From Gammaproteobacteria bacterium (GTDB lineage: Bacteria; Pseudomonadota; Gammaproteobacteria; Burkholderiales; SG8-39), in assembly GCA_041496705.1 (NCBI GenBank), contig JBGQFD010000004.1:6321-70320 (forward strand): a stretch of DNA of 64,000 bases. Reading direction: 5' to 3'. Below the pieces are notes generated by a model that saw only the letters and a program-made list of their open reading frames with translations, was not told where the DNA came from and did not search any database. Within the stretch, counting starts at the first letter, position 1, and every line of letters starts with the position of its first letter. This document shows positions 32,407 through 64,000 of this stretch, piece after piece. Made by a program: the position numbers and the translations under genes.

Positions 32407-32420
32407 TTGACCAGGGTCAA
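32407..32420. promoter_or_regulatory. FNR-type box TTGACcaggGTCAA upstream of hsp20-lon (shared with the divergent VOC gene)
   Basis: Read directly. Centre is 53 nt upstream of ATG 32467. Confidence 0.65.
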
Positions 32421-32466
32421 GCCGCGGGGGAATGGCTCCCGGCAAACTTGAGTCCAAGGGACTTGC

Positions 32467-32868
32467 ATGACATATCGCTATCCACGGTCATGGGTGTGGG
32501 CCGAAGCGCTGGAGCTGCTCCGAGGCGCGGAGAGGTTGCAGCGTCAGGTCTTCCAGATCGGCGCGGCTGAAGCGCCGGGCTGGGAGCCGCCCGTCGACCT
32601 CTACGAGACGGGCGAGGGGCTTACGCTCTGTGTTGCGCTTCCCGGCGTCGCGGCGAATGAACTCGAGGTCTCTCTCGAATCCGGAAGCGTCGCGGTTCGT
32701 GGCGAGCGCGCCTTCCGCGTGGAGTATCAGCGCGCCATTATCTACCGGCTGGAAATTCCCTATGGCCGCTTCGAGCGCCGCATCGCGCTGCCTGCCGGCC
32801 AGTACCAGGTCGTCGATCAGCGACTGGAGAACGGCTGCTTGACGCTCGACTTGCGAAGGCTGGGGTAA
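32467..32868 (+). CDS. Hsp20/alpha-crystallin family small heat-shock protein
   Basis: WEPPVDLYETGEGLTLCVALPGVAANELEVSLESGSVAVRGER...FERRIALP...ENGCLTLDL is an alpha-crystallin domain. Confidence 0.85.
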   Translation: MTYRYPRSWVWAEALELLRGAERLQRQVFQIGAAEAPGWEPPVDLYETGEGLTLCVALPGVAANELEVSLESGSVAVRGERAFRVEYQRAIIYRLEIPYGRFERRIALPAGQYQVVDQRLENGCLTLDLRRLG

Positions 32869-32872
32869 GGAC

Positions 32873-35302
32873 ATGAACCTGGAACTCGACAGCAGGGACC
32901 ACAATCCGGCAGGCGAGAAGGCGAGCGCCTCCGCCACCCGGTCGGCGCCCGACGGGATGGTCGCCCTCCCGGAGGACGCGCTCATCATCCTGCCCGTGCG
33001 CAGCATGGTGCTCTTTCCCGGCATGATCCTTCCGTTGACCCTCGGCCGCGAAGCCTCGATCGCCGCCGCTCAGGCAGCCGCGAAGGCGAAGCGGCCGGTC
33101 GGCGTCCTGTTGCAGCGGAACGCTGAGACCGAGAAGCCCGGGCCGGACGAGCTTTGCCTCGTCGGCACGGTCGCCAACATCGTGCGCTACGTCACCACGC
33201 CCGACGGCACGCATCACGTCATCTGCCAGGGGCAGCAACGCTTCCGCGTGGTCGAGTATCTCGAGGGCTACCCGTTCATGGCGGCACGCGTCGGGCGCAT
33301 CGAAGAACCCCAGGCCGCCGGCAACGAGATCGAGGCGCGATTCGTGCAGTTGAAGGAGCGCGCGCTCCAGGTCCTCGAGCTTCTGCCGCAGGCTCCGCAG
33401 GAGCTGGTCGCGGGCATCCAGGGCATGTCCTCGGCCGGGGCGCTGGCCGACCTCGTCGCCGGCGTCATGGACATCGAGGTCGCGGAGAAGCAGGCGCTGC
33501 TCGAGACCGTGGACCTGCAAAAGCGTCTGGATGGCGTGCTCGAGCTGCTCGCGCACCGGCTGCAGGTGCTCAAGCTCTCGCGCGAGATCGACGAGCGCAC
33601 CAAGACGAGCCTGGACGAGACCCAGCGCAAGTACTTCCTGCGCGAGCAGATGAAATCGATCCAGAAGGAATTGGGCGAGGGCGAGGAGGGCCAGGCCGCC
33701 GAGATCGAGGAGCTCAGGAAAGCGATCGCCGGGGCCAGCATGCCCGAAGAGGTCGAGAAGCAGGCGACGAAGGAATTGAAGCGCCTCGAGCGCATGTCCG
33801 ACGCTTCGGGCGAGTCCTCGATGGTGCGCACCTATCTCGATTGGCTGATCGAGCTGCCCTGGAAGAGCCCCGAGCCCGACGCGATCGACATGGCGGAGGC
33901 GCGGCGCATTCTCGATGCGGACCACTTCGGCCTCGATCAGGTGAAGAAGCGCATCGTCGAATTTCTCGCAGTGCGCAAGCTCAACCCGGAAGGGCACGGG
34001 CCCATCCTGTGCTTCGTCGGCCCGCCCGGAGTCGGAAAGACGTCGCTTGGCCAGAGCGTTGCCAGGGCGCTCGGTCGCAAGTTCGTGCGCGTGTCGCTCG
34101 GCGGCGTGCACGATGAAGCCGAGATACGCGGGCACCGGCGCACCTACATCGGCGCGCTGCCCGGCAACGTCATCCAGGCGCTGAAGAAGGCCGGCACGCG
34201 CGGCTGCGTGATGATGCTCGACGAGATCGACAAGCTCGGCGCGGGCTTCCACGGCAATCCGTCCTCGGCATTGCTCGAAGTGCTCGATCCGGCGCAGAAC
34301 AACACGTTCCGCGACAACTATCTCGGGGTGCCCTACGACCTTTCGCGCGTGCTTTTCATCACGACCGCAAACGTGCTCGACACGATCCCGGGTCCCTTGC
34401 GCGACCGCATGGAGATCATCCAGCTCCCGGGATACACGCAGGAGGAAAAGCGCGAGATCGCGCGCCGCTACCTCGTCGCGCGCCAACTCAAGGAAAACGG
34501 CTTGAAGCACGAGCAGTTCGAGATTGCCGATGAGGCGTTGACCGCGATCATCCGCGACTACACGCGCGAGGCCGGTGTGCGCTCGCTCGAGCGCGAGATC
34601 GGCGCGGTGTGCCGGCGCGCCGCGGTGCGGATCGCCGAGGGTAGCGTCCAGACCGTGAAGATCGGCGAGAAAGACCTCGCGGAGATCCTGGGGCCGACGA
34701 AGTTCGAGAACGAAGTGGCACTGCGCACAGCAATGCCGGGCGTCGCCACGGGTCTTGCGTGGACGCCGGTCGGCGGGGACATCCTCTTCATCGAAGCGAG
34801 CCGCACGCCGGGCAGCGGAAAGTTGATCCTCACGGGGCAGCTCGGCGACGTGATGAAGGAGTCCGCGCAGGCCGCGCTGACGCTCCTGAAATCGCGCGCC
34901 GCGGCGCTCGGCATCGATGCGGCCGCGTTCGAGAAGAGCGACGTGCACGTCCATGTGCCGGCGGGCGCGATTCCGAAGGACGGTCCGAGCGCCGGCGTCT
35001 CGATGTTCATGGCGCTCGCCTCGCTTTTCGCCGATCGCGCCGTGCGCGCCGATACCGCGATGACGGGCGAGATCAGTCTGCGCGGTCTCGTGCTTCCCGT
35101 GGGAGGAATCAAGGAAAAGGTCCTCGCCGCCATGCGCGCCGGGCTCCGCCGCGTGATGCTGCCCGCGCGCAACCGCAAGGACCTCGAGGAAGTTCCGGCC
35201 GAGGCCAAGGAGAAGGTCGAGTTCGTATTCCTGCAGGACGTAGACGACGCGGTGCGCGCCGTGCTCGAGGAGCACCGGGAAGCAAGAGAGCCGGCTGTCT
35301 AA
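32873..35302 (+). CDS. lon: ATP-dependent Lon protease
   Basis: 809 aa. LON N-domain, Walker A GPPGVGKTS, catalytic PKDGPSAGV, and the Lys-containing GGIKEKVLAA. Starts 4 nt after the hsp20 stop. Confidence 0.95.
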   Translation: MNLELDSRDHNPAGEKASASATRSAPDGMVALPEDALIILPVRSMVLFPGMILPLTLGREASIAAAQAAAKAKRPVGVLLQRNAETEKPGPDELCLVGTVANIVRYVTTPDGTHHVICQGQQRFRVVEYLEGYPFMAARVGRIEEPQAAGNEIEARFVQLKERALQVLELLPQAPQELVAGIQGMSSAGALADLVAGVMDIEVAEKQALLETVDLQKRLDGVLELLAHRLQVLKLSREIDERTKTSLDETQRKYFLREQMKSIQKELGEGEEGQAAEIEELRKAIAGASMPEEVEKQATKELKRLERMSDASGESSMVRTYLDWLIELPWKSPEPDAIDMAEARRILDADHFGLDQVKKRIVEFLAVRKLNPEGHGPILCFVGPPGVGKTSLGQSVARALGRKFVRVSLGGVHDEAEIRGHRRTYIGALPGNVIQALKKAGTRGCVMMLDEIDKLGAGFHGNPSSALLEVLDPAQNNTFRDNYLGVPYDLSRVLFITTANVLDTIPGPLRDRMEIIQLPGYTQEEKREIARRYLVARQLKENGLKHEQFEIADEALTAIIRDYTREAGVRSLEREIGAVCRRAAVRIAEGSVQTVKIGEKDLAEILGPTKFENEVALRTAMPGVATGLAWTPVGGDILFIEASRTPGSGKLILTGQLGDVMKESAQAALTLLKSRAAALGIDAAAFEKSDVHVHVPAGAIPKDGPSAGVSMFMALASLFADRAVRADTAMTGEISLRGLVLPVGGIKEKVLAAMRAGLRRVMLPARNRKDLEEVPAEAKEKVEFVFLQDVDDAVRAVLEEHREAREPAV

Positions 35303-35356: not shown

Positions 35357-36115
35357 TCAGGGTACTCCGCCCTGGCTGTTCGATCCTGTGGCGAGGACCG
35401 GGCCGGCGCGGTCGAGCCGGCGGACGCGTGGTAGTTCGATCACCTTCACGGCGGCAGACTCGCGCCGCGGGTCTACCCAATCGACGATGGGCGCGAATTC
35501 TTCCAGCTCGGCGGCTGCCTGGGCAGGGTCCATCTCGTAGATTCCGACGCCGGTCTCCGCCCCCCGGAGGTAAACCTCCGAGTCGCGGATGCGAGCGAGG
35601 AGCGGCAGGCCGAGCGACCCGAGGAAGCGCTCCAGCGGCTGATACACGGGCATCGCGCTGCGCACCCGGTTCGCCACCACCGCCAGGCGGATGCTGCGCG
35701 TGCGCACCCGCCCGAGGATCAGCAGGTCCCTGACGAAATTCGCGGTCGCGTGGATGTCGATCGACGACGGCGGTACGGGGATTAGAATCGCGTCGGCGCG
35801 AAACAGCATCTCCTGCAGCAGCACGCCTGAGACGCCGGCCGGCGCGTCTATGAAGAGCTGCTGCGTGTCCGCGGGCACGTGCATGTCGACGCTGCGGATG
35901 CGGCCGGCCTTTGCCGGCGCGGCGTTGGCGGCGTGGATCCTGGGCCCGGCGATGCCGCGCAGCCGCAGCCAGTTCAGGCTCGAGCCCTGCGGGTCGTAGT
36001 CCATGATCGCGGTGGAGATGCCTCGGGCGGCGAACGAGCTCGCCAGGTTGGTCGCGAGCGTGGTCTTTCCAGACCCGCCCTTGGAATTGATGACCAGCGT
36101 GGTGTTCGTCCTCAT
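35357..36115 (-). CDS. Orphan ParA/MinD-family P-loop ATPase with a C-terminal extension
   Basis: LVINSKGGSGKTTLATNLA (deviant Walker A), IMDYDPQGSSLNW, FIDAPAG. No parB, parS or plasmid/phage genes nearby. Confidence 0.8.
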   Translation of the reverse strand: MRTNTTLVINSKGGSGKTTLATNLASSFAARGISTAIMDYDPQGSSLNWLRLRGIAGPRIHAANAAPAKAGRIRSVDMHVPADTQQLFIDAPAGVSGVLLQEMLFRADAILIPVPPSSIDIHATANFVRDLLILGRVRTRSIRLAVVANRVRSAMPVYQPLERFLGSLGLPLLARIRDSEVYLRGAETGVGIYEMDPAQAAAELEEFAPIVDWVDPRRESAAVKVIELPRVRRLDRAGPVLATGSNSQGGVP

Positions 36116-36251: not shown

Positions 36252-36830
36252 CTAGATGGCCGGCCCCACGCCGATCGGCGGGGGGGCAAGGTCGACGATG
36301 CGGGTGAAGAGCTTCTGGAAGTCCCGGGTCTCGCGCTCGGCGGCGAGCGGGTCGCGGTTGGACTCGAATTCCCGGTCGACCGAGGCCCAGTCCTCGGCCT
36401 GGAGCAGCTTTTCGGCCAGGGGGAACATCAGCTCCTCTTCCTTGCGCATGTGGTCCCAGTACCCCTGGACAAAGGCCTCGACTTCCTGGGCGAAGGCCGG
36501 GAACTCGCGGTCCCCGCCCTCCTCGTAGCGGATCAGGTGCTGCTCGAGCTTGCGCAGCGCCTGCTCGCCGCCGGCGTGTTCCTTCTCGAGCTCGGCGATG
36601 AGCGCATCGGTGCTGCCGCGCCGGCGCAGGGCGTTGAACAGGTACAGGTCTTCCTTGGGGTGGTGCACGCGCTCGGCAAACGTGTCCAGGTAGTAGAGCA
36701 TCGCGCGGAATACCCGCGGGTCGATTTTCGCCTTTTTCGCCCGGATCTGGTCGACCAGATACTGCATTCCGTGCAGGATCGCTGCGATCGAGCGGTGCTC
36801 GTCGCGGATGATGTTCAGTACTTTGGGCAT
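36252..36830 (-). CDS. Hemerythrin (HHE cation-binding) domain protein
   Basis: Start set to ATG 36830 after GGAGGA. IIRDEHRSIAAIL...ERVHHPKEDLYLF...EKEHAGGEQ...YWDHMRKEEE carries the H/HxxxE/HxxxxD-type ligands of hemerythrin-like domains. Confidence 0.8.
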   Translation of the reverse strand: MPKVLNIIRDEHRSIAAILHGMQYLVDQIRAKKAKIDPRVFRAMLYYLDTFAERVHHPKEDLYLFNALRRRGSTDALIAELEKEHAGGEQALRKLEQHLIRYEEGGDREFPAFAQEVEAFVQGYWDHMRKEEELMFPLAEKLLQAEDWASVDREFESNRDPLAAERETRDFQKLFTRIVDLAPPPIGVGPAI

Positions 36831-36861: not shown

Positions 36862-37575
36862 TCATCGCGGCGGCGTGCGACAAAAAATCGAATTGCTCGC
36901 GATGGTTTCGATTTCGCCAGCGTAGGCGAGACCGAGGAGCCCAAAGGCGACGATGATGCCTCCGGCCGCGCGGCGCGCGAGCGGCGCGCGCAGCCGCTGC
37001 TGAAGCCCGGGCAGCAGCGCGCCGGCGGCGAGCAGTGCCGGCAGGGTGCCCAGTCCGAAAGCGAGCATCACGAGCGCCCCGCTCGCGGCGTTCCCGCTCA
37101 CCAGGGCGATGGCGAGCACGCTGTAGACGAGTCCGCAGGGCAGCAGCCCCCACACCATCCCGTAGGCCAGGGCGCGGTGCACCGTGCGCACCGGGAGCAG
37201 CCGAGCGCTCGCGGGCTGCACCCGGCGCCACAGGGCGCGGCCGGCGCGTTCGAATACGTCCAGGTATCGAGGAACGCCCAGCAGGTACAGGCCCAGCGCG
37301 ACCAGCACCAGCTGCGCGGCTACGTACAGCACGATCTGGATCGGCAGCACTCCGTCGAGCAGCAGCGCCGCCGATCCGAGGCTGGCTGCCAGCGCGCCGG
37401 CGGTGACGTAGGTCGCGATGCGTCCGGCGTGATGGGCGATCTGCAGGACATGGCGGGGCCGCTCGCCGGGGAGGCGCACCGAGAGTGCGGTGACGATGCC
37501 GCCGCACATGCCCAGGCAGTGCGTGCTGCCGAGCAAGCCGACGAGGAACATCGATACGAGCGCGGCCGAGCTCAT
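36862..37575 (-). CDS. TauE/SafE-type membrane protein with HCxGMCGG motif
   Basis: MSSAALVSMFLVGLLGSTHCLGMCGGIV..., about 6 TM segments, second LLPCGLVY motif. ATG 37575 overlaps the hemN stop (ATGA). It is the in-frame tail of the spurious 762-aa ORF. Confidence 0.68.
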   Translation of the reverse strand: MSSAALVSMFLVGLLGSTHCLGMCGGIVTALSVRLPGERPRHVLQIAHHAGRIATYVTAGALAASLGSAALLLDGVLPIQIVLYVAAQLVLVALGLYLLGVPRYLDVFERAGRALWRRVQPASARLLPVRTVHRALAYGMVWGLLPCGLVYSVLAIALVSGNAASGALVMLAFGLGTLPALLAAGALLPGLQQRLRAPLARRAAGGIIVAFGLLGLAYAGEIETIASNSIFCRTPPR

Positions 37576-38951
37576 ATGACGCGGGAGTAGCGCTCCCGCT
37601 CGGCGCGCAGAGTGCGGTCGAACACCATGCACACCGCGCGCACCAGCAGCCGGCCCCTCGGCGTGACGCTGATCCAATCCTCGTCGACGCTCACCAAGTC
37701 CTCGGCCTGCATGGTCTTCAATTGCTCCAGCTCGGGCGCGAAGTATTCGTCGAAATCGATCAGGTGGGCGATCGAGATCGACTCCTTGGATACCTCGAAG
37801 TTGCACGCGAGCGACTGGATCACCGCGCGGCGCACCAGGTCGTCGGCGCTCGACTCGATGCCGCGCATGACGGGCAGCACGCCGCGATCGAGCGCGTCGT
37901 AGTAGGACTCCAGGGTCTTCAGGTTCTGGCTGTAGATCGGGCCGACCTTGCTGATCGCCGAGACGCCGAGCGCGACGATATCGCTGTCCCCGGCGCTCGA
38001 ATATCCCTGGAAGTTGCGCGTCAGCCGGCCGCGGCGCTGCGCCACGGCGAGATCGTCCTCCGGCTTGGCGAAATGATCCATGCCGATGTAGAGGTAGCCG
38101 GCGGCCTGGAGTTCGGAGATCGCAGTGGTAAGCAGACCCAGCTTGACTTCGGATGCGGGGAGGTCGGCATCGGCAATGCGCCGCTGCGGCTTGAACACGG
38201 TCGGCAGATGAGCGTACGAGTACAGGGCGACCCGGTCGGGGTTGCTGCGGATCACCTCGGCCAGGGTGTGCGAAAAACCCTCGAGGGTCTGCTTCGGCAG
38301 GCCGTAGATGAGATCCATGTTTACCGACTTGAAGCCATGACGGCGCGCCGCGGCGATCACCGCGTTGGTCTCGTCGACGCTCTGCACGCGATGCACCGCA
38401 CGCTGCACCTCGGGATCGAAGTCCTGCACGCCCACGCTGATGCGGTTGAAGCCGAGCGCGGCGAGGAGCCCCACGCGCTCCGGGCTCACCTTGCGCGGGT
38501 CGACCTCGATCGCGTACTCCCCCGAGGGATCGAGGCTGAATTCCGAGCGGATCGCGCCGAGCAATTCCTCGAGCTCGCTCTCGCCGAGGAAGGTCGGTGT
38601 TCCGCCACCCCAGTGCATCTGGCTGACGTTGCGGTCGCCCGGAAGGTCTTCGGCCACCAGGCGGATTTCTTGCGAAAGGTAGCGCAGGTACTTTGCCGAG
38701 CGGCCGTGGTCCTTGGTGATGATCTTGTTGCAGGCGCAGTAGTAGCAGATCGAGTCGCAAAAGGGCAGGTGAACGTACAGGGCGAGCGGCCGGGCAAAGC
38801 CGCCGATGTTGCGGTTGCGCAGCCAGTGCCGGTACGCATCGGCGTCGAAGGCTTCGATGAAGCGGTCCGCCGTAGGATACGACGTATAGCGCGGTCCGTT
38901 GCCACCGTACTTGCGGATCAGGTCGAGGTCTATGGCAAGCGAGTTGGACAT
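37572..38951 (-). CDS. hemN: Oxygen-independent coproporphyrinogen III oxidase (radical SAM)
   Basis: DLIRKYGGNGPRYTSYPTADRF, radical-SAM YVHLPFCDSICYYCACN, GGGTPTFL. Start set to ATG 38951 (MSNSLAID...); an alternative is 38990. Confidence 0.93.
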   Translation of the reverse strand: MSNSLAIDLDLIRKYGGNGPRYTSYPTADRFIEAFDADAYRHWLRNRNIGGFARPLALYVHLPFCDSICYYCACNKIITKDHGRSAKYLRYLSQEIRLVAEDLPGDRNVSQMHWGGGTPTFLGESELEELLGAIRSEFSLDPSGEYAIEVDPRKVSPERVGLLAALGFNRISVGVQDFDPEVQRAVHRVQSVDETNAVIAAARRHGFKSVNMDLIYGLPKQTLEGFSHTLAEVIRSNPDRVALYSYAHLPTVFKPQRRIADADLPASEVKLGLLTTAISELQAAGYLYIGMDHFAKPEDDLAVAQRRGRLTRNFQGYSSAGDSDIVALGVSAISKVGPIYSQNLKTLESYYDALDRGVLPVMRGIESSADDLVRRAVIQSLACNFEVSKESISIAHLIDFDEYFAPELEQLKTMQAEDLVSVDEDWISVTPRGRLLVRAVCMVFDRTLRAERERYSRVI

Positions 38952-39028: not shown

Positions 39029-39042
39029 TTGATATGGGTCAA
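39029..39042. promoter_or_regulatory. FNR-type box TTGATatggGTCAA in the hemN / fnr divergent region
   Basis: Read directly. Centre is about 84 nt upstream of hemN ATG 38951 and about 190 nt upstream of fnr ATG 39225. Confidence 0.7.
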
Positions 39043-55409: not shown

Positions 55410-55423
55410 TTGACCTAAGTCAA
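55410..55423. promoter_or_regulatory. FNR-type box TTGACctaaGTCAA upstream of the P-type ATPase-Pat operon
   Basis: Read directly. Centre is about 71 nt upstream of the start at 55345. Confidence 0.7.
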
Positions 55424-56926: not shown

Positions 56927-56930
56927 TATT

Positions 56931-57686: not shown

Positions 57687-58640
57687 ATGGCCGAAGCGCA
57701 AGCCTTGTCACGGCGAGAGGTGTGGAGGCGAAAGCTTCTTTACCCCGGGCACACCTTGCCGACGGCGGCGGCGCCCGTTCTGGTATCCGTCGGCTTGGCG
57801 GTCCACTATCATGTTTTCGCTGCTCTGCCGGTTTTCCTCGCCTTCCTTGCCGGTTGGCTGATACAGCTCGGCGGGGTCCTGACGGACAACTATGTAAACC
57901 TGGTGCAGCAGCCCGATGACCGGGAGCATCCCGAACTGGTGCAAGCCTTGAAGCTCGGCACGCTCTCGCTCCGCGAACTGAAAGCGGCGATCTCCGCCTG
58001 CTATGCGCTCGCCCTGCTCGCCGGGGCTTACCTCCTCTGCACCGCGGGTCTCATGGTGCTGCTGATCGGGCTCTGCAGCATCGCGGCGAGCTGGGCCTAC
58101 TCGGCCGGTCCCTGGCCGATCGGCAGACACGGGCTGGCCGATCCGCTGTTCTTCGTTTTCTTCGGCATCGTTTCCGTCATCGGTGGCTACTATGTTCAGG
58201 CGGCGCCGGCGGCCGGCGCCGTCCCCGGGTCTTGGTTCGTGCGCGACGCGCTGCCGGCAAGCGCCTTCGCGCTCGGCCTGCCGATCGGCGCCTTGACGAC
58301 GAACATCCTCGTCATTGACGACATCCGCGACCGGGAGTACGACGCCGTGAAAGGCAAGCGCACGGTGGCGGTGCGCTTCGGCAAGGAATGGAGTCGCGCG
58401 GAATTTTGCGCACTGCTGATGCTCTCGTACCTCGCACCTTTCTGGTTCTGGCAGGGGTTCGGATTCAGCGCCTGGATCCTGTTGCCGCTGCTCACCGTTC
58501 CCCACGCTTGGGCCGCGGCGCGCGCTGTGTTGACTTTGGACCAGTTCAAAGACCTCGTGCCGATCACCCCGCAGACCGGGCGGCTGTTGCTCGGGTACGC
58601 CGTGCTCCTTGCAATCGGTGCCGCGGCGCCGTTGAGCTAA
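57687..58640 (+). CDS. UbiA-superfamily prenyltransferase, MenA (1,4-dihydroxy-2-naphthoate prenyltransferase)-like
   Basis: ATG 57687 after GGAGGAAGA. About 8-9 TM segments; Asp-rich LTDNYVNL and VIDDIRDREYD motifs; KRTVAVRFG as in MenA-type enzymes. Confidence 0.7.
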   Translation: MAEAQALSRREVWRRKLLYPGHTLPTAAAPVLVSVGLAVHYHVFAALPVFLAFLAGWLIQLGGVLTDNYVNLVQQPDDREHPELVQALKLGTLSLRELKAAISACYALALLAGAYLLCTAGLMVLLIGLCSIAASWAYSAGPWPIGRHGLADPLFFVFFGIVSVIGGYYVQAAPAAGAVPGSWFVRDALPASAFALGLPIGALTTNILVIDDIRDREYDAVKGKRTVAVRFGKEWSRAEFCALLMLSYLAPFWFWQGFGFSAWILLPLLTVPHAWAAARAVLTLDQFKDLVPITPQTGRLLLGYAVLLAIGAAAPLS

Positions 58641-58771: not shown

Positions 58772-58785
58772 TTGACTTAGATCAA
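58772..58785. promoter_or_regulatory. FNR-type box TTGACttagATCAA upstream of usp-hpf-Zn ribbon-mgtA
   Basis: Read directly. Centre is about 72 nt upstream of ATG 58851. Confidence 0.72.
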
Positions 58786-58850: not shown

Positions 58851-59303
58851 ATGGTCTACAAAAGAATTCTTGTTCCGGTTGACGGGAGCTCGGCATCGAA
58901 TGCCGGATTGAAGGAAGCGCTCAGGCTCGCCAAGGATCAGAAGGCCAAGTTGCTGCTGCTGCACATCGTCGATGAGCTCGTGGTGTTCAACACGCCAGAG
59001 GCCGGTTTCAACATGGAGTCCATCATCGAATCGATGCGGCGCAGCGGCCGGCAGCTCATCGCGCGAGCCGTGAAACTCACAGCCTCGAGGGGAGTCAAAG
59101 CGGATTCGACCTTGGTCGAAAGCGCCGGCGTGCGGGTAGCGGACGTGATCACCCGGCAGGCGAAGCGCGGGCGAGCCGACCTGATCGTCATGGGCACCCA
59201 CGGCCGCCGCGGCGTCAATCGCATGATCATGGGCAGCGACGCCGAACTGGTGGTGCGCAGTGCGGGTGTGCCGGTGCTTCTGGTGCGCGATGGTGGCAGG
59301 TAG
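58851..59303 (+). CDS. Universal stress protein (single UspA domain)
   Basis: MVYKRILVPVDGSSAS...ADLIVMGTHGRRGVNRMIMGSDAELVVRSAGVPVLLVR. Confidence 0.9.
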   Translation: MVYKRILVPVDGSSASNAGLKEALRLAKDQKAKLLLLHIVDELVVFNTPEAGFNMESIIESMRRSGRQLIARAVKLTASRGVKADSTLVESAGVRVADVITRQAKRGRADLIVMGTHGRRGVNRMIMGSDAELVVRSAGVPVLLVRDGGR

Positions 59304-59411
59304 GGTGCGCAGCCGTCGCGGGACTGGCGTTCGTCCGGGCCGGGGTTCATCATGATGCATCCTGCATTCCGCCGCAGACGCAAGGCCGGGAGAAGCGCCG
59401 TGAAAGTCCCC

Positions 59412-59768
59412 ATGCAAATCATCGTTCGCAACCTGGAGCACTCGGAGGCGCTCGAAGCGCGCGTGCGCGACAGCGTCGCCAAGCTGGAGGGACTGCATCC
59501 GAACATGGTGAGCTGCCGCGTCACCGTCGAGGAATCCCACCGGCACCAGCATCAGGGTCGCCAGTTCCAGGTGCGCATCGACGCTCGCGTGCCCGGCAAG
59601 GAACTCGTTGCCAGCCACGACCACGACGAGGACGTCTACATCGCCCTTCGCGACGCGGTCCTCGCCATGCGACGCCAACTCGAGGACGCCGCCAGGGTGT
59701 TGCGCGGCGAGGTCAAATCGCATTCCCGCCCAAAGAGGGAAGACTCGGAATCGGCGGGTGACGCGTGA
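59412..59768 (+). CDS. HPF/RaiA-family ribosome hibernation factor (short form)
   Basis: Start set to ATG 59412. MQIIVRNLEHSEALEARVRDSVAKLEGLHPNMVSCRVTVEE...DVYIALRDAVLAMRRQLE. Confidence 0.75.
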   Translation: MQIIVRNLEHSEALEARVRDSVAKLEGLHPNMVSCRVTVEESHRHQHQGRQFQVRIDARVPGKELVASHDHDEDVYIALRDAVLAMRRQLEDAARVLRGEVKSHSRPKREDSESAGDA

Positions 59769-60259
59769 AGCGGGAACGAGGCGGTTTTCGCATGCTGCGC
59801 AGAATGCAGCTGCTGGAGGGACTGGGCGAGGACAGCTACAAGTCGAAGGGGAAACTTCCCGACGCAACCCGCTGCCCGGCCTGCGGGGCCAGTTTCCACG
59901 CGGGGCGGTGGACTTGGGATGCCGCGCCGGCCGGTGCGCACGAACATCTTTGTCCGGCGTGCCACCGGATCCAGGACAAGTTTCCGGCAGGCTATGTCGC
60001 GCTGAGCGGGAAGTTCTTCCGCGAGCATCGCGAAGAGATCCTGGGGCTTGCGCGGCACTGCGAGGAGAAGGAAAAGGCCACGCATCCCCTGCAGCGAATC
60101 ATCACGATCGAGGACGGCGCCGAAGGGGTCCTGGTGACCACGACTGACGTGCATCTGGCGCGCGATATCGCCGAGCGCGTGCACGATGCCTACAAGGGCA
60201 GCCTGGTGTTCCACTACAGCAAGGAAGAAAACCTGCTTCGCGCGACCTGGAAGCGCTGA
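59765..60259 (+). CDS. Zinc-ribbon protein (two CPAC pairs), BCAM0308-like family
   Basis: GTGA overlap with the hpf stop. DSYKSKGKLPDATRCPACGASFHAGRWTW...HLCPACHRIQDKFPAGYV...VLVTTTDVHLARDIAERVHDAYKGSLVFHYS. Family name recalled from NCBI naming, not searched. Confidence 0.65.
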   Translation: MKRERGGFRMLRRMQLLEGLGEDSYKSKGKLPDATRCPACGASFHAGRWTWDAAPAGAHEHLCPACHRIQDKFPAGYVALSGKFFREHREEILGLARHCEEKEKATHPLQRIITIEDGAEGVLVTTTDVHLARDIAERVHDAYKGSLVFHYSKEENLLRATWKR

Positions 60260-60396
60260 AACGGGAGAAATATCCCATCCGCGCAGCGCGTCGTTTTTCT
60301 CTGACGGGCATCGAAGATGCGGCGCGGCTCGACCGCGAGACCCTGTTCTCCCGGCTCGAAGCGTCGCCCGCGGGGCTGACGCGGCACGAAGCGAGC

Positions 60397-62895
60397 GTGC
60401 GTCTCGCGCGCTTCGGGCCGAACGCGGTCGCGCGCGAGCGGCCCCTGGCGCCGCTCGCGCGTCTGCTGCACCTCTTCCTGAGCCCCTTGCCGCTGCTTCT
60501 TCTCGGACTCGCGGTCGTCGAGCAGCTGAGCGGAGAAGCTCGCGGCGCGGCGGTCATCGCCGTCATGGTCGTGCTCTCGGTGCTGCTTTCCTGGTTTCAG
60601 GAAGTGCGCTCCAGCAAGGCGGCCGAGCGCCTGCGCGCGATGGTGCACACGACGGCGACGGTGTCGCGACGGGATCGCGGCAAGACCACTGCGGGAAGCG
60701 CGTCGGAGTCCGAAGGCCGCCTCCACGAGATCCCGATAGCCCACCTGGTTCCCGGGGACGTCGTGCCTCTCGCGGCGGGCGATCTCGTTCCAGCCGACAT
60801 CCGGCTGCTCGAATCCAAGGACTTGTTCGTCGATCAGTCCGCGCTCACCGGCGAATCGATGCCCGCGGAGAAACACGCCGCTGCGCCGCCGGGCGCCGCG
60901 TCGGCCCTCGAATTGCCCAACGTCGCCTTCCTGGGCACGCACGTGGTGAGCGGCACGGCGACCGCGCTCGTGATCGCGACGGGAGTCCATACCCGCTTCG
61001 GCTCGATCGCGGCGTCGATCGCGGCCGAGGGCCAGCCGTCGAGCTTCGATCTGGGCGTGAAGCGCTTCATCGGGCTGATGCTGCGCTTCATGCTGGTGAT
61101 GGTGCCGCTCGTTTTCCTCATCAACGGTGTCCTGAAGGGCAACTGGGTCGAGGCCTTCCTGTTCGCGGTGGCCGTGGCGGTCGGGCTTACGCCCGAGCTG
61201 CTGCCGATGGTGGTGACGATCAATCTCGCCAAGGGCGCGCTCGCGATGTCGCGAAAAAAAGTTATCGTCAAGCGCCTGGGCGCGATTCAGAACCTCGGCG
61301 CGATGAACATGCTGTGCACCGACAAGACCGGGACGCTCACCCAGAACAAAGTGATTCTCGAGAAGCATGTGGATATTTTCGGCGCCGAAAGCCGGCACGT
61401 GCTCGAACTCGCCTACCTCAACAGCCATTTCCAGTCGGGCCTGAAGAATCTCCTCGACATCGCTATCCTCGAGCACGCCGAGATGCGCGAACACGTCCAC
61501 GTTCCGCGCAGCTATCGCAAGATCGATGAAGTGCCTTTCGACTTCCGGCGCCGGCGCATGTCGGTGATGGTTGCGCGCGATCCGACGCACCACGACCTGA
61601 TCTGCAAGGGCGCGCCGGAGGAAATTATCGCCGTGTGCGCGCACTTCGAAGAAAAGGGCAATGTCGTTCCTCTTACTGCGGCGCACCGCGTCGACCTGCT
61701 TCCGGTCATCCGCGGTCTGAACGAGGAAGGCTTTCGCGTGATCGCCGTGGCGTACAAGCACATCCCCGCTGCGAAGGCCGTCTGCAGCGGCGCGGACGAG
61801 TCGGGGCTCGTCCTCGCCGGCTATGTCGCGTTTCTCGACCCGCCCAAGGAAAGCGCGGCCGGCGCCGTTCGCGCGCTGCATGAGTACGGCGTGCAGGTGA
61901 AAGTCCTGACTGGCGACAACGACGTCGTGACCAGGAAGGTCTGCGCGATGGTCGGAATCGAGCCCGGGACGATCGTACTCGGGAGCGAGCTGGAACACAT
62001 GGATGACGCGACGCTGGCGCAGGTCGCGGCGGAAACGGCGGTGTTCGCGAAGCTCGCGCCCGAGCAGAAGGCGCGCATCATCGCCGCGCTCCGGGGCGGC
62101 GGTCATGTCGTCGGCTACCTCGGCGACGGCATCAACGACGGCCCGGCGCTGCGAGCCGCCGACGTCGGCGTGTCGGTGGAGGGCGCCGCGGACATCGCCA
62201 AGGAGTCCGCCGATATCATTCTACTGGAGAAGAGCCTGCTCGTGCTCAAGGACGCTGTCATCGAAGGCCGGCGCGTCTTCGCGAACGTCGTGAAATACAT
62301 CCGCATGGGCGCGAGCTCGGCCTTCGGCAACATGCTCTCCGTGGTGGGGGCGAGCGCCTTCCTGCCTTTTCTGCCGATGGCGCCGGTGCAGGTGCTGCTG
62401 AACAACCTGCTCTACGACGTGTCGCAGACTGCGCTCGCGACGGACAGCGTCGACGCCGCAGATCTCGCGCGGCCGCGCAAGTGGGACATCGGCAACATCG
62501 GCCGCTACATGCTCGTCTTCGGGCCGATCAGCTCGCTCTTCGACTACGCCACCTACTTCACTCTGCTCTACGCGTTCCAGGCCCGAGAGAACCCGAGCCT
62601 GTTCCAGACCGGCTGGTTCGTGGAATCGGTGCTGTCGCAGACGCTGATCGTGCACGTCATCCGCACCGGCGGCATTCCCTTTCTGGACAGCAGGTCGGCG
62701 GCGCCTTTGCTCGTCACGACGATCGCGGTCTGCGCCGCTGCCATGTGGCTGCCGTTTTCGGGATTCGCGCACCTGCTGGGATTGACGCCGCTGCCCTCGG
62801 CCTACTGGTTCGCGCTCGCGGCGATCCTGGTTTGCTACTTGCTGCTGACCCAATCGGTGAAGGCGGCGCTCGTCCATCGCTTCGGGCTCGACTAG
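60397..62895 (+). CDS. mgtA: Magnesium-translocating P-type ATPase (MgtA type); true start probably upstream at a non-canonical codon
   Basis: LCTDKTGTLTQNKV, GDGINDGPALRAADVGVSV, and a C-terminal region collinear with E. coli MgtA as recalled. Coordinates follow the ORF track (GTG 60397); see the finding on the start codon. Confidence 0.9.
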   Translation: MRLARFGPNAVARERPLAPLARLLHLFLSPLPLLLLGLAVVEQLSGEARGAAVIAVMVVLSVLLSWFQEVRSSKAAERLRAMVHTTATVSRRDRGKTTAGSASESEGRLHEIPIAHLVPGDVVPLAAGDLVPADIRLLESKDLFVDQSALTGESMPAEKHAAAPPGAASALELPNVAFLGTHVVSGTATALVIATGVHTRFGSIAASIAAEGQPSSFDLGVKRFIGLMLRFMLVMVPLVFLINGVLKGNWVEAFLFAVAVAVGLTPELLPMVVTINLAKGALAMSRKKVIVKRLGAIQNLGAMNMLCTDKTGTLTQNKVILEKHVDIFGAESRHVLELAYLNSHFQSGLKNLLDIAILEHAEMREHVHVPRSYRKIDEVPFDFRRRRMSVMVARDPTHHDLICKGAPEEIIAVCAHFEEKGNVVPLTAAHRVDLLPVIRGLNEEGFRVIAVAYKHIPAAKAVCSGADESGLVLAGYVAFLDPPKESAAGAVRALHEYGVQVKVLTGDNDVVTRKVCAMVGIEPGTIVLGSELEHMDDATLAQVAAETAVFAKLAPEQKARIIAALRGGGHVVGYLGDGINDGPALRAADVGVSVEGAADIAKESADIILLEKSLLVLKDAVIEGRRVFANVVKYIRMGASSAFGNMLSVVGASAFLPFLPMAPVQVLLNNLLYDVSQTALATDSVDAADLARPRKWDIGNIGRYMLVFGPISSLFDYATYFTLLYAFQARENPSLFQTGWFVESVLSQTLIVHVIRTGGIPFLDSRSAAPLLVTTIAVCAAAMWLPFSGFAHLLGLTPLPSAYWFALAAILVCYLLLTQSVKAALVHRFGLD

Positions 62896-62922
62896 GCGGG
62901 CGGTCGCCCGCCTGCACGAGGG

Positions 62923-62936
62923 TTGAGCCAAATCAA
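62923..62936. promoter_or_regulatory. FNR-type box TTGAGccaaATCAA upstream of the desaturase gene
   Basis: Read directly. One deviation from TTGAY. Centre is about 64 nt upstream of GTG 62994. Confidence 0.55.
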
Positions 62937-62993
62937 AGAACGTATCGGGCCGCCGGCCTAGAGTGCCAAATAGGCGCAAAGCAGGAATCGATC

Positions 62994-64000
62994 GTGCTCT
63001 TCTACAGCGTAGTGGATCTGCCGTGGTGGGGTTACTTGATCGTCGCCGCGGCGCTCACCCATGTCACTATCGTCGCAGTGACGCTGTTCCTGCACCGGCA
63101 TCAGGCGCACCGCGCCCTCGACTTGCATCCGGCGCTCAGCCATTTCTTCCGGCTGTGGCTGTGGATGACGACCGGCATGGTGACCCGGGAATGGGCGGCG
63201 GTGCATCGCAAACACCACGCCAAGTGCGACACGCCGGAAGATCCGCACAGCCCGCAGATCTATGGGATCAAGCGGGTCCTGTGGGGCGGCGTGTTCCTGT
63301 ACGTGAAGGCCGCGCACGATCCGCAAACCCTAGAGCGCTACGGCGCCGGAACGCCCGACGACTGGCTCGAGCGCAATATCTACTCGAAATTCCAGATACT
63401 GGGGATCACCCTGATGGGCTCGATCGACGTGGTCCTGTTCGGCGTCGTGCCGGGCGGCTTGATCCTGTTTGCGCAGATCGTGTGGATCCCGTTCTGGGCC
63501 GCGGGCGTCATCAACGGCATCGGTCATTATTGGGGCTACCGCAACTGGCCCACTCCGGACTGGAGCACCAACATCGTGCCCTGGGGCATCGTCATCGGCG
63601 GCGAGGAACTGCACAACAATCACCATGCCTACCCGACTTCGGCCAAGCTTTCGAACAAGTGGTACGAGATCGACATCGGCTGGCTGTATATCCGCATCTT
63701 GCAGGCGCTGCGGCTGGCGAAGGTGAAGCACGTGGCGCCGAGGCCGCACTTCGCCCAGCCCAAAGCGTCGGCGGATCTGCAGACGCTGCAGGCGGTGATT
63801 GCCAATCGATACGATGTGCTGGCGCACTACGCCAAGTCTCTGAAGGCCATCTACACGAAGGAGCTCGCCCGGCTGCGGCACCATGCTCCGACGGAAGCGC
63901 TCGTGTTGCAGGACATCGAACGCTCATTGGCGTCCGACGAACGCATACTCCGCGAGGCGGAGCGGGCGAAATTGAACGAAGCGCTGCCGAAATCGCGTGC
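62994..64000 (+). CDS. Membrane acyl-CoA (delta-9-type) fatty acid desaturase, 3' end beyond the window
   Basis: Absent from the ORF track (no stop in the window). GTG 62994 after AGGAA. Reads VLFYSVVDLPWWGYLIVAAALTHVTIVAVTLFLHRHQAHRALDLHP...AAVHRKHHAKCDTPEDPHSP...GEELHNNHHAYP, with three His boxes. Confidence 0.85.
   Translation, partial: MLFYSVVDLPWWGYLIVAAALTHVTIVAVTLFLHRHQAHRALDLHPALSHFFRLWLWMTTGMVTREWAAVHRKHHAKCDTPEDPHSPQIYGIKRVLWGGVFLYVKAAHDPQTLERYGAGTPDDWLERNIYSKFQILGITLMGSIDVVLFGVVPGGLILFAQIVWIPFWAAGVINGIGHYWGYRNWPTPDWSTNIVPWGIVIGGEELHNNHHAYPTSAKLSNKWYEIDIGWLYIRILQALRLAKVKHVAPRPHFAQPKASADLQTLQAVIANRYDVLAHYAKSLKAIYTKELARLRHHAPTEALVLQDIERSLASDERILREAERAKLNEALPKSR

Follow-up and report, generated by a model that had tools for sequence, protein, structure and literature searches.

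Does the second half of this 64-kb window (the whole stretch of DNA that was analysed, from a Burkholderiales bacterium of soil or freshwater, not in culture) hold operons wired to a common low-oxygen switch, and which regulator would throw it? The preliminary description had proposed a low-oxygen persistence island governed by FNR-type boxes, and the block that runs from 32.4 kb up to 64 kb or beyond is probably an FNR regulon in clustered form, of lxa type. The term 'island' is not supported in the sense of horizontal transfer, since no tRNA, integrase or GC break was found at the block; it is better named a regulon cluster.

Palindromic boxes and their promoters

The search pattern for FNR-type boxes, TTGAYNNNNRTCAA, was matched exactly at 32407, 39029, 41739, 49987, 55410 and 58772 (six matches, against 0.11 expected from 100 shuffled control sequences, none of which reached six), and a seventh site (62923, TTGAGCCAAATCAA) departs from it by one mismatch. 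These are the seven palindromes (TTGAY-N4-RTCAA, one with TTGAG) read earlier. Of the looser core TTGA-N6-TCAA the window has exactly seven copies, every one within 32.4-63 kb; intergenic DNA makes up 9.5% of the window, yet holds all seven copies. The composition-based expectation was 0.083 copies for 32-64 kb (seven seen, which bears out the view that chance is unlikely) and 0.105 for the first half (none seen). The core was likewise absent from coding DNA, where a similar density of matches had been named as counter-evidence, and the single near-box of first-half intergenic DNA (9401, GTGATCGGGGTCAA) lies between two convergent gene ends. A position weight matrix of the kind proposed earlier, derived from the seven sites themselves and thus showing only the absence of look-alikes elsewhere in the window, scored them at 19.6-25.3 bits and the next best sequence of the whole window, within coding DNA, at 13.1 bits.

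The sites (no strand assigned), with the -10-like hexamer downstream of each, are as follows:

32407..32420, FNR box 1, TTGACCAGGGTCAA; hsp20-lon promoter; CAAACT 22 nt downstream towards hsp20
39029..39042, FNR box 2, TTGATATGGGTCAA; hemN-dsbD2-hemerythrin promoter, divergent from fnr1; CATAGT 22 nt towards hemN
41739..41752, FNR box 3, TTGACGTGGGTCAA; APH/AAA kinase promoter; CATAGT 21 nt towards the kinase-like gene
49987..50000, FNR box 4, TTGACCTAGATCAA; pump operon promoter; TAGCAT 21 nt towards hlyD
55410..55423, FNR box 5, TTGACCTAAGTCAA; ATPase-pat promoter; CAACCT 21 nt away
58772..58785, FNR box 6, TTGACTTAGATCAA; usp-hpf-BCAM0308-mgtA promoter; TACTTT 22 nt away
62923..62936, FNR box 7, TTGAGCCAAATCAA, one half-site TTGAG; desaturase promoter; TAGAGT 22 nt away

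From box edge to start codon we measured 46 nt (hsp20), 77 (hemN), 97 (APH/AAA kinase), 71 (hlyD), 64 (ATPase1), 65 (usp) and 57 (desaturase), within the 45-105 nt first given. On the operon-facing side of every box (7/7) a NANNNT -10-like hexamer stands 21-22 nt downstream, that of ATPase1 (CAACCT) being the weakest, and the opposite side always has the worse -10 score (7/7); the side of box 3 that faces the PAS-HK gene, whose start is 43 nt away, has no -10. No sigma-70 -35 element was found at the seven promoters, as expected where an activator site takes its place. Judged from sequence, the box-to--10 spacing corresponds to that of class II promoters activated by FNR, with the site centred near -41.5, and its orientation-specific character agrees with the earlier assignment of the sites as FNR-type boxes in promoter position.

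Resident regulators and gene content

The regulatory genes of the block are:

39225..40025, + strand, fnr1, FNR paralogue 1 (266 aa; CSNCNLHEIC, QVCVI Cys, ETVSR)
41796..43115, + strand, sensor histidine kinase, FixL-like PAS + HisKA_3 (Pfam PAS, HisKA_3, HATPase_c)
43112..43765, + strand, NarL/DevR-type response regulator (Pfam Response_reg, GerE)
43917..44309, + strand, single-domain receiver (REC) protein (Pfam PF00072)
44340..45131, + strand, fnr2, FNR paralogue 2 (263 aa; CSSCGLRELC, EVCVI Cys, ETVSR)

Both FNR paralogues carry the CxxCx5C motif and the central Cys (all four cluster ligands) together with the ETVSR recognition helix, as had been read by the preliminary description, and both align to crystallised Aliivibrio fischeri FNR at E=1e-58 (for fnr1, 5E44/5CVR). 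They are 73% identical to each other; fnr1 has diverged further, and the FNRs of the relatives are all closer to fnr2. The latter is the conserved member of a four-gene sensor cassette that recurs across relatives (FixL-like PAS/HisKA_3 kinase, NarL/DevR-type regulator, lone receiver domain and fnr2). The PAS domain of the kinase matches the FixL haem-PAS (8js5, E=8e-15) with the proximal His aligned, and the best PDB matches of the response regulator are VraR, NarL and DevR. In the MAG relatives narL and fnr flank the REC gene, which the Burkholderia loci lack.

The remaining genes, in the order of the window, are:

32467..32868, + strand, Hsp20/alpha-crystallin small heat-shock protein (Pfam PF00011)
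32873..35302, + strand, Lon protease (Pfam Lon_C, LON_substr_bdg, AAA)
35357..36115, - strand, ParA/MinD-like P-loop ATPase (Pfam CbiA/ParA)
36252..36830, - strand, hemerythrin-domain protein (Pfam PF01814; gene call from L001)
36862..37575, - strand, DsbD_2-family membrane protein (Pfam PF13386, 188 bits)
37572..38951, - strand, HemN, oxygen-independent coproporphyrinogen III oxidase (NCBIfam TIGR00538, 574 bits, cutoff 325)
40022..41641, - strand, APH (phosphotransferase) + AAA_33 kinase-like protein (Pfam PF01636, PF13671)
45460..46302, + strand, tandem universal stress protein, two Usp domains (Pfam PF00582, two stretches)
46330..49915, - strand, MacAB-type pump operon (Pfam; start ATG 49915 read from sequence): HlyD adaptor 48668-49915, FtsX/MacB permease 47445-48671, ABC ATPase 46694-47452, 148-aa protein without assigned function 46330-46776
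50088..52814, - strand, Pat-type protein (Pfam CoA_binding, Succ_CoA_lig, ATP-grasp_5, Acetyltransf)
52811..55345, - strand, ATPase1, type II-like P-type cation ATPase (Pfam E1-E2_ATPase, Cation_ATPase_C/N)
55710-56816, - strand, five- to six-haem periplasmic cytochrome (CXXCH motifs; weak Pfam MtrC/MtrF-like match)
56931 to ~57530, - strand, NapC/NirT-type tetrahaem quinol dehydrogenase (NCBIfam TIGR02161, 192 bits, below the 310 cutoff)
57687..58640, start uncertain, + strand, MenA-type 1,4-dihydroxy-2-naphthoate prenyltransferase (NCBIfam TIGR00751, 128 bits, cutoff 102)
58851..62895, + strand, operon usp-hpf-BCAM0308-mgtA: usp 58851-59303 and hibernation-promoting factor 59352-59768 (Pfam Usp, Ribosomal_S30AE); BCAM0308-family Zn-ribbon protein 59765-60259 (NCBIfam NF040826 lxa_BCAM0308, 193 bits, cutoff 100); MgtA Mg2+-importing P-type ATPase 60397-62895 (NCBIfam TIGR01524, 1088 bits, cutoff 611)
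62994..64000, + strand, membrane fatty-acid desaturase, running past the window end (translation; Pfam FA_desaturase)

Pfam and NCBIfam agree with the identities first assigned, except that the gene at 36862..37575 had been labelled 'tauE', a name we reject in favour of DsbD_2 (PF13386). The Lon of the block is a second, non-housekeeping-type copy paired with hsp20, and the ParA/MinD-like ATPase may close the hemN operon. ATPase1, which reached no NCBIfam equivalog cutoff, leads the ATPase-pat operon, and its stop is overlapped by 4 nt by the start of pat (52814); the Pat-type protein combines ADP-forming acyl-CoA synthetase-like domains with a C-terminal GNAT acetyltransferase. The desaturase starts at a GTG (62994; AGGAA 6 nt upstream) and has the His boxes HRHQAH, HRKHH and HNNHH. 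Neither fnr1 nor the tandem usp has a box of its own. The multihaem/menaquinone module that the preliminary description placed in the block is present as genes, but no FNR box was found on it (its flanks lack a matrix match), and it looks like a later insertion.

Related loci and the Burkholderia lxa locus

Across 28 related MAG loci the operons are reordered, yet every one retains a box of its own (4.2 boxes would be expected in 1.13 Mb and 108 were counted); NANNNT stands at offsets 21-22 in 51 of 67 box-to-gene pairs, other offsets occurring 1-6 times each. The hsp20-lon pair is kept in ~75/80 metagenome loci and is adjoined by the ParA/MinD-like ATPase in relatives. Among ~13 close relatives box 1 is exact in six, has one mismatch in four and is degenerate in three, so the wiring of the hsp20 module is evolutionarily labile. 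Ten orthologous hemN promoters carry a box in relatives (CATAGT kept in 6/10, NANNNT at the same spacing in 9/10); the distance between this box and the HK start is 19-50 nt, and the HK-facing side shows a correctly spaced -10 in 0/5. Boxes also precede hlyD (L004, L005, L009, L011, L065, L072) and ATPase1 (L005, L010, L049, L065, L069, L072); the box 6 region can be aligned with a single box common to divergent usp and ATPase1 operons (L010, L049, L065, L072), and four orthologues of the desaturase promoter (L006, L011, L065, L072) have its unusual TTGAG half-site as well. An NnrS gene adjoins a box in relatives.

The likeness to the B. cenocepacia lxa locus, pointed out earlier, is borne out by the lxa_BCAM0308 equivalog, the regulator cassette, several cargo families, and the same box and promoter geometry. 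Two 50-kb Burkholderia lxa-type stretches hold 13 (L079) and 15 (L078) boxes, 25/28 with a -10 at 21-22 nt (~10% in random-position controls). Fnr (one fnr2-type gene per Burkholderia locus, 53-54% identical to fnr2), NarL, PAS-HK, Usp, tandem Usp (43-44% identical), Hsp20, the APH/AAA kinase (in L078, 38% identical over 94% of its length; partial in L079, 48% over 14%, cut by the locus end) and the BCAM0308-family protein are common to both. Gene by gene, only ~9 families are in common, gene order is not conserved and only ~1/3 of the cargo families overlap. Sass et al. (2013) described a TGA-N6-TCA motif at 17 intergenic points together with a resident Anr-like regulator (PMC3721108). Because this design was already described, we file the block within a known kind: these comparisons of sequence point to a distant relative of the Burkholderia lxa low-oxygen locus and not to a new kind of system.

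Candidate regulators and the predicted programme

The TTGA-N6-TCAA consensus is common to FixK, Dnr and FNR, and since NnrR-type regulators also have it in common, the resident FNRs are predicted binders only. The boxes could be genuine CRP/FNR-family sites whose main binder is a FixK-, Dnr- or NnrR-type protein without an iron-sulfur cluster, encoded elsewhere in the genome; with the haem-PAS kinase/NarL pair or nitric oxide driving that protein, the block would answer to a phosphorelay or NO signal instead of direct O2 sensing by FNR. Besides the common consensus (Anr/Fnr motif sharing is noted in PMC3721108), this would fit the FixL-like PAS kinase and NarL/FixJ-like regulator genes within the block, the NnrS gene next to a box in relatives, and the proposal of FixLJ-FixK as lxa activator in a 2025 review (PMC12071387). 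We nevertheless regard it as unlikely, given that two Cys-complete FNR proteins are encoded within the block, that an fnr2-type gene accompanies the HK-RR cassette in 18/74 Pat-anchored loci and in each Burkholderia lxa-type locus, and that no FixK- or Dnr-type gene (without the Cys cluster) was found within the 64-kb window.

It is more improbable still that FNR binds mainly as a repressor, or autoregulates the sensor cassette, with the block shut down at low oxygen. Box 3 and the relatives' hemN box stand close to the HK start and lack a correctly spaced -10 facing it, a placement that would suit occlusion of the HK promoter, but the seven cargo operons have activator geometry (box 21-22 nt upstream of the -10, no -35) and in Burkholderia low O2 brings strong induction of the homologous genes, not repression (PMC3721108). 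A last reading, in which the palindromes arose by chance or as copies of a short repeat or mobile element and regulate nothing, has in its favour only that chance can produce short palindromes. It is effectively refuted by their number, their intergenic placement and their conservation: the flanks of the seven boxes are unrelated to one another, and the box persists in orthologous promoters of other genomes whose flanks have diverged.

Under FNR activation, a fall in oxygen would allow the two resident FNRs to hold [4Fe-4S] clusters and dimerise, and the dimers would bind the seven boxes. As each box would overlap the promoter -35 region, with its centre ~41.5 bp before the start of transcription, FNR bound there would recruit RNA polymerase as a class II activator, switching on hsp20-lon, hemN-dsbD2-hemerythrin(-parA), the APH/AAA kinase, the MacAB-type pump, P-type ATPase-Pat, usp-hpf-BCAM0308-mgtA and the desaturase. 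A second input for oxygen or redox state, based on haem, probably comes from the sensor cassette.

At 6% O2, expression of the homologous B. cenocepacia locus rises 2- to 240-fold, and cells deleted for that locus survive anoxia less well (PMC3721108); in strain H111, deletion of both anr copies abolishes anoxic survival (PMC9104464). By analogy, we infer low-oxygen induction and a role in persistence for the block. The output would be a low-oxygen maintenance programme of chaperone and protease activity, ribosome hibernation, protein acetylation, ion homeostasis, oxygen-independent haem synthesis and membrane lipid adjustment, and HemN together with a possible quinol-dependent multihaem system suggests a real microaerobic or anaerobic metabolism, beyond 'persistence' alone.

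FNR-type boxes and their promoters

The block (32.4 to at least 64 kb of the window) is, on sequence grounds, a clustered FNR-box-wired regulon of the lxa type (lxa being the low-oxygen-activated locus of Burkholderia cenocepacia) in an uncultured Burkholderiales lineage. A pattern search of the window for TTGAYNNNNRTCAA returned six exact matches (starting at 32407, 39029, 41739, 49987, 55410 and 58772), while dinucleotide-preserving shuffles (n = 100) gave a mean of 0.11 matches and never reached six. A seventh site (62923, TTGAGCCAAATCAA) was found once one mismatch was permitted. The looser core TTGA-N6-TCAA occurs exactly seven times in the 64 kb, each time in intergenic DNA (9.5% of the window) and each time in the 32-64 kb half, for which base composition predicts 0.083 occurrences; the first half has none, against 0.105 expected. 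These counts bear out the seven sites of the preliminary description and its report of box-free intergenic DNA in the first half, where the sole near-box (9401-9414, GTGATCGGGGTCAA) lies between two convergent gene ends and is thus unlikely to be a promoter element. A position weight matrix (PWM) made from the seven sites scores those same sites at 19.6-25.3 bits and the next-best position in the window, in coding DNA, at 13.1 bits; as none of the core matches is coding either, no similar density of matches was found inside genes. No relationship is apparent among the flanking sequences of the seven sites, which argues that the boxes are not copies of a repeat. TTGAC is the commonest half-site (9 of 14).

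The gene map was drawn from frame-specific GC, the gene calls on an identical MAG contig (GCA_041492625.1) and Pfam/NCBIfam scans. All seven sites are palindromic, TTGAT-N4-ATCAA-like and intergenic, ahead of a gene, with 46-97 nt between box edge and start codon; within 31 kb the operons downstream of them take in about 23 of 30 genes. The gene names of the preliminary description stand with one exception, its 'tauE' being a DsbD_2-family protein.

Predicted FNR boxes (start position), strand and content of the operons they precede, and operon-facing -10-like hexamers
Box 1 (32407), plus strand: hsp20-lon; CAAACT
Box 2 (39029), minus strand: hemN-DsbD_2-hemerythrin-ParA-like, divergent from fnr1 (39225-40025, plus strand); CATAGT
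Box 3 (41739), minus strand: APH+AAA_33 kinase-like gene, divergent from PAS/HisKA_3 kinase-narL-REC-fnr2-(orf80)-tandem usp (plus strand; fnr2 at 44340-45131); CATAGT
Box 4 (49987), minus strand: hlyD-ftsX-ABC-148-aa protein; TAGCAT
Box 5 (55410), minus strand: P-type ATPase-Pat (acyl-CoA synthetase-like plus GNAT protein), with a 4-nt start/stop overlap; CAACCT
No box (55710-58640): NapC/NirT tetrahaem protein and 5-6-haem cytochrome (minus strand), MenA (plus strand)
Box 6 (58772), plus strand: usp-hpf-BCAM0308-mgtA; TACTTT
Box 7 (62923), plus strand: His-box fatty-acid desaturase, continuing past the window end; TAGAGT

The position of the boxes relative to putative -10 elements is equally regular. 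On the operon-facing side of every box a -10-like NANNNT hexamer (A in second and T in sixth place) stands at 21 or 22 nt, the opposite side scores more poorly in all seven cases, and sigma-70 promoter scans found no recognisable -35 at any of these promoters. At class II promoters activated by FNR or CRP (e.g., the E. coli FNR promoters) the activator site takes the place of the -35 and is centred near -41.5; a 14-bp box ending 21-22 nt before the -10 implies a centre about 41.5 bp upstream of the start, and hence a predicted class II layout. The spacing recurs among 67 orthologous box-to-gene pairs in related loci, 51 of which carry NANNNT at offset 21 (32 pairs) or 22 (19 pairs), against 1-6 cases at any other offset from 15 to 29. 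The promoter position originally proposed for the boxes is thereby supported.

Box 3 was also considered as a class II promoter of the divergent PAS-kinase operon and was rejected, since neither the window nor any of five relatives has a suitably spaced -10 on the kinase side. Likewise, the hemN box of the relatives has a correctly spaced -10 on its PAS-kinase side in none of five cases, which argues against its serving the sensor cassette (PAS kinase, narL, REC and fnr2) as a class II promoter; that box may instead occlude the cassette's promoter. Sigma-70 promoter and intrinsic-terminator scans of the block performed at chance level and did not delimit the operons, their sole useful match being a sigma-70-like promoter (57609-57582) upstream of napC.

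Of universal stress proteins the window encodes two, one with a single domain and one tandem, plus a single Hsp20. The ATPase stop codon overlaps the Pat start by 4 nt (52811-52814, ATGA), which suggests that the pair may be translationally coupled, and the two genes are adjacent in several relatives. Another 4-nt overlap (40022-40025) lies at the stop codons of fnr1 and the APH/AAA-kinase gene, which are convergent. The APH/AAA kinase had no match in a PDB sequence search, and the 148-aa protein (46330-46776) belongs to no Pfam or NCBIfam family; a conserved 148-aa protein accompanies the pump operon, or lies directly upstream or downstream of pat, in four related loci (L005, L010, L012 and L013). 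The first 32 kb hold ordinary metabolism and signalling genes with no low-oxygen theme (e.g., malate synthase, CoxG, TctC, Rieske oxygenases, alcohol dehydrogenase, a GGDEF protein, aldolases and shikimate dehydrogenase). Immediately left of the block is a conserved three-gene unit encoding a CsgG-like/DUF4810/GNA1162-like lipoprotein trio (29547-31322), with no FNR box.

Two FNR paralogues and a putative haem sensor

The two FNR paralogues encoded inside the block, for which the preliminary description had proposed cysteine ligands and an E--SR helix, keep all of these features in register with a crystallised homologue. FNR1 aligns with Aliivibrio fischeri FNR over 227 residues (E = 1e-58), and the N-terminal C-x2-C-x5-C motif (CSNCNLHEIC in FNR1, CSSCGLRELC in FNR2) falls on CQDCSISQLC, which we take to correspond to C20, C23 and C29 of E. 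coli FNR. The central cysteine, presumably equivalent to E. coli C122, lies in QVCVI (FNR1) and EVCVI (FNR2), aligned to MVCEI of the crystallised protein, and the recognition helix reads ETVSR in both paralogues versus ETISR in A. fischeri. An E--SR helix of this kind reads the TTGAT half-site. Both proteins also have a fifth cysteine two residues past the third ligand (CxxCx5CxxC, in CIPC and CLPC; encoded within 39330-39370 and 44440-44480).

FNR1 and FNR2 are 73% identical and differ around the Cys23 equivalent, which is flanked as N-C-N in FNR1 and S-C-G in FNR2. Considering that the flanking positions tune oxygen sensitivity in E. coli and P. putida FNR proteins (PMC4505428), different oxygen thresholds for the two paralogues are plausible. 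Every FNR gene found in the related loci is nearer to fnr2 than to fnr1, so that fnr2 is the conserved member of the sensor cassette and fnr1 an extra copy in this lineage.

The PAS domain of the kinase (42006-42458) resembles the haem-PAS of FixL (E = 8e-15 to 8js5 and 4e-12 to 1dp6), and its proximal haem-ligand histidine, the equivalent of BjFixL His200, is aligned (AAHRKHIEGF versus RSRHDSYISRY). The distal arginines of the FixL FG loop are not conserved in the kinase (Arg220 is replaced by Ser and Arg206 by Gly), and its phosphoacceptor domain is of the HisKA_3 and not the HisKA type of FixL. The catalytic core resembles those of DesK, VraS and DevS, and the partner response regulator VraR, NarL and DevR. 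It is reasonable to suppose that the kinase would provide a second, haem-based input for oxygen or redox state. A resemblance of its PAS domain to the haem-binding PAS of EcDosP was also seen; the domain could be a haem-based sensor that signals in another way.

Related loci in uncultured Burkholderiales

Relatives were collected by a Pat protein scan with one genome per GTDB species, and their genes were labelled by blastx against the window proteins. The 74 loci thus obtained come from MAGs labelled nearly always as Burkholderiales, Betaproteobacteria or Gammaproteobacteria, with Methyloglobulus morosus KoM1 as the one cultured representative. The source organism of the window falls within this uncultured group. 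Four contigs with a Burkholderiales-type locus (L023, L037, L048 and L053) bear titles that vary among 'Enterobacteriaceae', 'Bordetella parapertussis' and 'Streptomycetaceae', probably as taxonomic mislabels of bins. At least two boxes were present in 28 of the 74 loci, which together hold 108 boxes versus 4.2 expected; the 35 loci devoid of boxes, most of them less closely related and lower in GC, provide an internal control.

The same operons recur in the relatives in varied order and orientation, each with its own box upstream. The relative L005, for instance, has the kinase-like gene and the hlyD-ftsX-ABC operon diverging from a pair of boxes, then a box ahead of ATPase-pat, then a box between the divergent hemN-dsbD2-hemerythrin operon and the HK-narL-REC-fnr cassette. 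Details of single promoters are retained as well: the CATAGT hexamer in six of ten hemN promoters, and the TTGAG half-site in all four orthologous desaturase promoters, which argues that box 7 would be functional and not a near-miss. Beyond the desaturase, an FNR box stands ahead of a B12-binding radical-SAM/DUF4070 gene in L065 (498-2015) and ahead of a small 127-128-aa gene in L011 (1946-4711) and L009 (3793-4176); in L011 the latter box also lies right against the end of a run of NnrS-SirB-flavodoxin-like genes. From these boxes of the relatives, the wired block probably continues past the window's right end.

A metagenome scan with Lon gave 80 loci (L081-L160) from soil and freshwater, with hsp20 directly upstream of lon in about 75. 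Among the closest (Lon at least 85% identical) the promoter is alignable: six have an exact box, four a box with one mismatch and three a degenerate one. In a second clade GTGAT-N4-ATCAA-like sites occupy the position of box 1. Since hsp20-lon recurs in most loci and the exact box in only a subset, we read it as a widespread module whose predicted FNR wiring is real but evolutionarily labile.

A stretch of the block that escapes this wiring (55710-58640) carries genes for a tetrahaem protein of the NapC/NirT type and for a 368-aa cytochrome having 5-6 CXXCH motifs, with the gene of a MenA prenyltransferase divergent from them. Its GC (0.61) is the lowest of the block; it has neither a box nor a PWM match, and the sigma-70-like promoter upstream of napC is its own. 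In the 74 related loci, a comparison that covered the multihaem cytochrome and MenA turned up a single counterpart, a 28% UbiA-family match in L065. The module is located precisely where four relatives (L010, L049, L065 and L072) have a single box common to the divergent usp-hpf-BCAM0308-mgtA and ATPase-pat operons, and on the usp side the window's intergenic DNA can be aligned with theirs as far as the box, which is itself part of the alignment. It is most simply read as a lineage-specific insertion into a bidirectional FNR promoter, which would have left a box on both sides. A menaquinone-linked multihaem system is unusual for Burkholderiales.

For the block as a whole, the word 'island' used in the preliminary description does not hold in the sense of horizontal transfer: GC is flat outside the 56-58 kb module, and neither an integrase nor a tRNA is present. 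The tRNA and Rfam scans returned nothing, that is, no island-boundary marker and no riboswitch. Elsewhere the original interpretation was supported wherever it could be tested. Binding of the boxes by the resident FNRs, induction at low oxygen and a role in persistence we infer by analogy with known systems, and an alternative to persistence is active microaerobic or anaerobic metabolism, suggested by the presence of HemN and of a quinol-linked multihaem system.

Relation to lxa and other low-oxygen regulons

In B. cenocepacia J2315 the lxa locus spans BCAM0275a-BCAM0323 (50 genes), is induced 2- to 240-fold at 6% oxygen and is required for anoxic survival (Sass et al. 2013, PMC3721108). Its TGA-N6-TCA motif occurs at 17 intergenic points, and the Anr-related regulator BCAM0287 adjoins a response regulator and a kinase (BCAM0287-0289) (PMC3721108). 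We compared the window with two proxies for J2315 from a plasmid collection, Burkholderia sp. FXe9 (L079) and B. stagnalis (L078). The FXe9 order (Hsp20, nitroreductase, BON, SulP ... Fnr, RR, USPs, acetate kinase ... MBL, ABC, BON, BCAM0308, FtsH, class II RNR, PfkB) agrees with the published BCAM numbering. The proxies hold 13 (FXe9) and 15 (B. stagnalis) TTGA-N6-TCAA boxes, and for 25 of these 28 a NANNNT hexamer stands at 21-22 nt in one of the two orientations, a result that random positions give in about 10% of cases.

Amino-acid identity of window proteins to their counterparts in the Burkholderia loci
Fnr: 53-54%
NarL-type regulator: 51-54%
PAS kinase: 47%
Tandem Usp: 43-44%
Usp: 33-51%
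APH/AAA kinase: 38% (94% coverage, L078); 48% over a 14% fragment (L079)
BCAM0308: 40% (L079); 43% in B. stagnalis, beyond the fetched stretch
Hsp20: common by annotation only, no significant match
P-type ATPase: 29%, distant

The likeness to lxa proposed in the preliminary description is substantiated by the comparison. Both loci consist of clustered operons, each after a TGA-N6-TCA (FNR/Anr-like) motif, and both have a resident Anr/FNR-type regulator beside a NarL-type regulator and a sensor kinase. The TTGAY-N4-RTCAA box and the 21-nt spacing from box to -10 are identical in the Burkholderia lxa-type loci examined, and the cargo in common includes Usp, tandem Usp, Hsp20, APH/AAA kinase, a P-type cation ATPase, an ABC pump, an ATP-dependent protease and a BCAM0308-family protein. 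Moreover, the window Zn-ribbon protein passes the NCBIfam equivalog NF040826 lxa_BCAM0308 (193 bits, cutoff 100), and its tblastn matches are annotated as 'BCAM0308 family protein'.

Gene by gene, the agreement with the proxy loci covers the box and only about nine families (fnr, narL, HK, usp, tandem usp, APH/AAA kinase, BCAM0308, Hsp20 and a distant P-type ATPase), but neither gene order nor most metabolic genes; orthology or synteny with BCAM0275a-0323 as a whole locus was not found. The window has fewer USPs than the six of J2315, Lon where lxa has FtsH and MacAB-type where lxa has RbbA-type ABC genes, and it lacks the Ack/Pta, alcohol dehydrogenase, PHB, class II RNR, ribokinase, nitroreductase, BON and SulP genes of lxa. 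Conversely, about two-thirds of the window cargo is not in lxa, the additions comprising HemN, DsbD_2, hemerythrin, Pat, HPF, MgtA, the desaturase, a lone REC, the second FNR and the unwired NapC/multihaem/MenA genes. Its host is an uncultured, non-Burkholderia lineage, with a best DNA match of about 67% nucleotide identity to the cultured replicons of the plasmid collection. Judged by sequence, membership of the lxa locus as a whole is thus partial. Given that the complete lxa cluster occurs in no other Burkholderia genome (PMC3721108), a variable cargo is a property of the class.

Other systems share parts of this design. The regulons of Anr in P. aeruginosa and FNR in E. coli have a [4Fe-4S] FNR-type regulator and a box centred near -41.5, as is predicted for the window, but their targets are scattered under one global regulator, whereas the window keeps targets and two regulator copies in one block of more than 30 kb. 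Their consensus is TTGAT-N4-ATCAA, and their targets include usp genes and hemN. The DosR (DevR) regulon of M. tuberculosis and M. abscessus comprises Usp, tandem-Usp, HspX, a P-type ATPase, an aminoglycoside-phosphotransferase-like kinase and a ribosome hibernation factor. This cargo would be functionally parallel to that of the window, and the regulators would be parallel too, HisKA_3 haem sensor kinases being joined there by a NarL-type regulator; the operator differs (a DosR box versus an FNR box), as does the kinase sensor (GAF versus FixL-like PAS). Anr control of USPs is cited in PMC3721108, and the overlap and functional parallel in content among lxa, Anr and DosR have already been discussed (PMC12071387).

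FixLJ-FixK of rhizobia and Burkholderia likewise sets a haem-PAS-like kinase and a LuxR/NarL-family regulator beside a CRP/FNR-family regulator of TTGA-N6-TCAA. It differs from the window in that the window kinase has a HisKA_3 core (DesK/VraS/DevS-like) and a putative haem-binding PAS domain without the distal Arg220 of FixL, and in that the window FNRs keep the Cys cluster that FixK lacks. A gene set strikingly like that of the window is found on an alphaproteobacterial plasmid, p05 of Azospirillum sp. TSH58 (L080, NZ_CP022369.1 230872-261330), where mgtA and a MacAB-like pump are accompanied by Hsp20, BCAM0308 and two USPs as well as by a sensor kinase and a Crp/Fnr regulator, with no exact TTGA-N6-TCAA box; the cargo association is therefore broader than the FNR-box wiring.

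Taken together, we tentatively offer a joint reading that we regard as possible rather than probable. An uncultured soil and freshwater Burkholderiales radiation would have a fixed four-gene dual-sensor core (haem-PAS/HisKA_3 kinase, NarL/DevR-type regulator, orphan receiver and [4Fe-4S] FNR) of a modular hypoxia regulon, and its cargo operons (hibernation with Mg2+ import, P-type ATPase with acetyltransferase, Hsp20 with Lon, efflux pump, HemN and desaturase) would be reshuffled, gained and lost, each with its own class II FNR promoter. Burkholderia lxa would then be a specialised offshoot, the whole a Gram-negative counterpart of mycobacterial DosR, and the two FNR copies would set staged oxygen thresholds.

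The clustered-regulon architecture itself has been known since 2013, an NCBI family is named after it, and no new mechanism emerges here. What is added is the comparative picture of a fixed sensor cassette, mobile box-plus-operon modules and a conserved, predicted -41.5 geometry. It separates a core (the kinase-NarL-FNR cassette, Usp, BCAM0308 and the APH/AAA kinase, together with the sequence of the box and its predicted -41.5 geometry) from the cargo, and the sharply defined promoters together with the two FNR paralogues form a testable set for a heterologous host. The lxa design has been studied in the Burkholderia cepacia complex for cystic-fibrosis infection; as a low-oxygen regulon in one uninterrupted stretch, with an FNR/Anr regulator of its own and an FNR box per operon, it is here extended to uncultured environmental Burkholderiales, in which Pat-type acetylation, HPF, MgtA and the desaturase, not in the Burkholderia locus, are candidate hypoxia functions.
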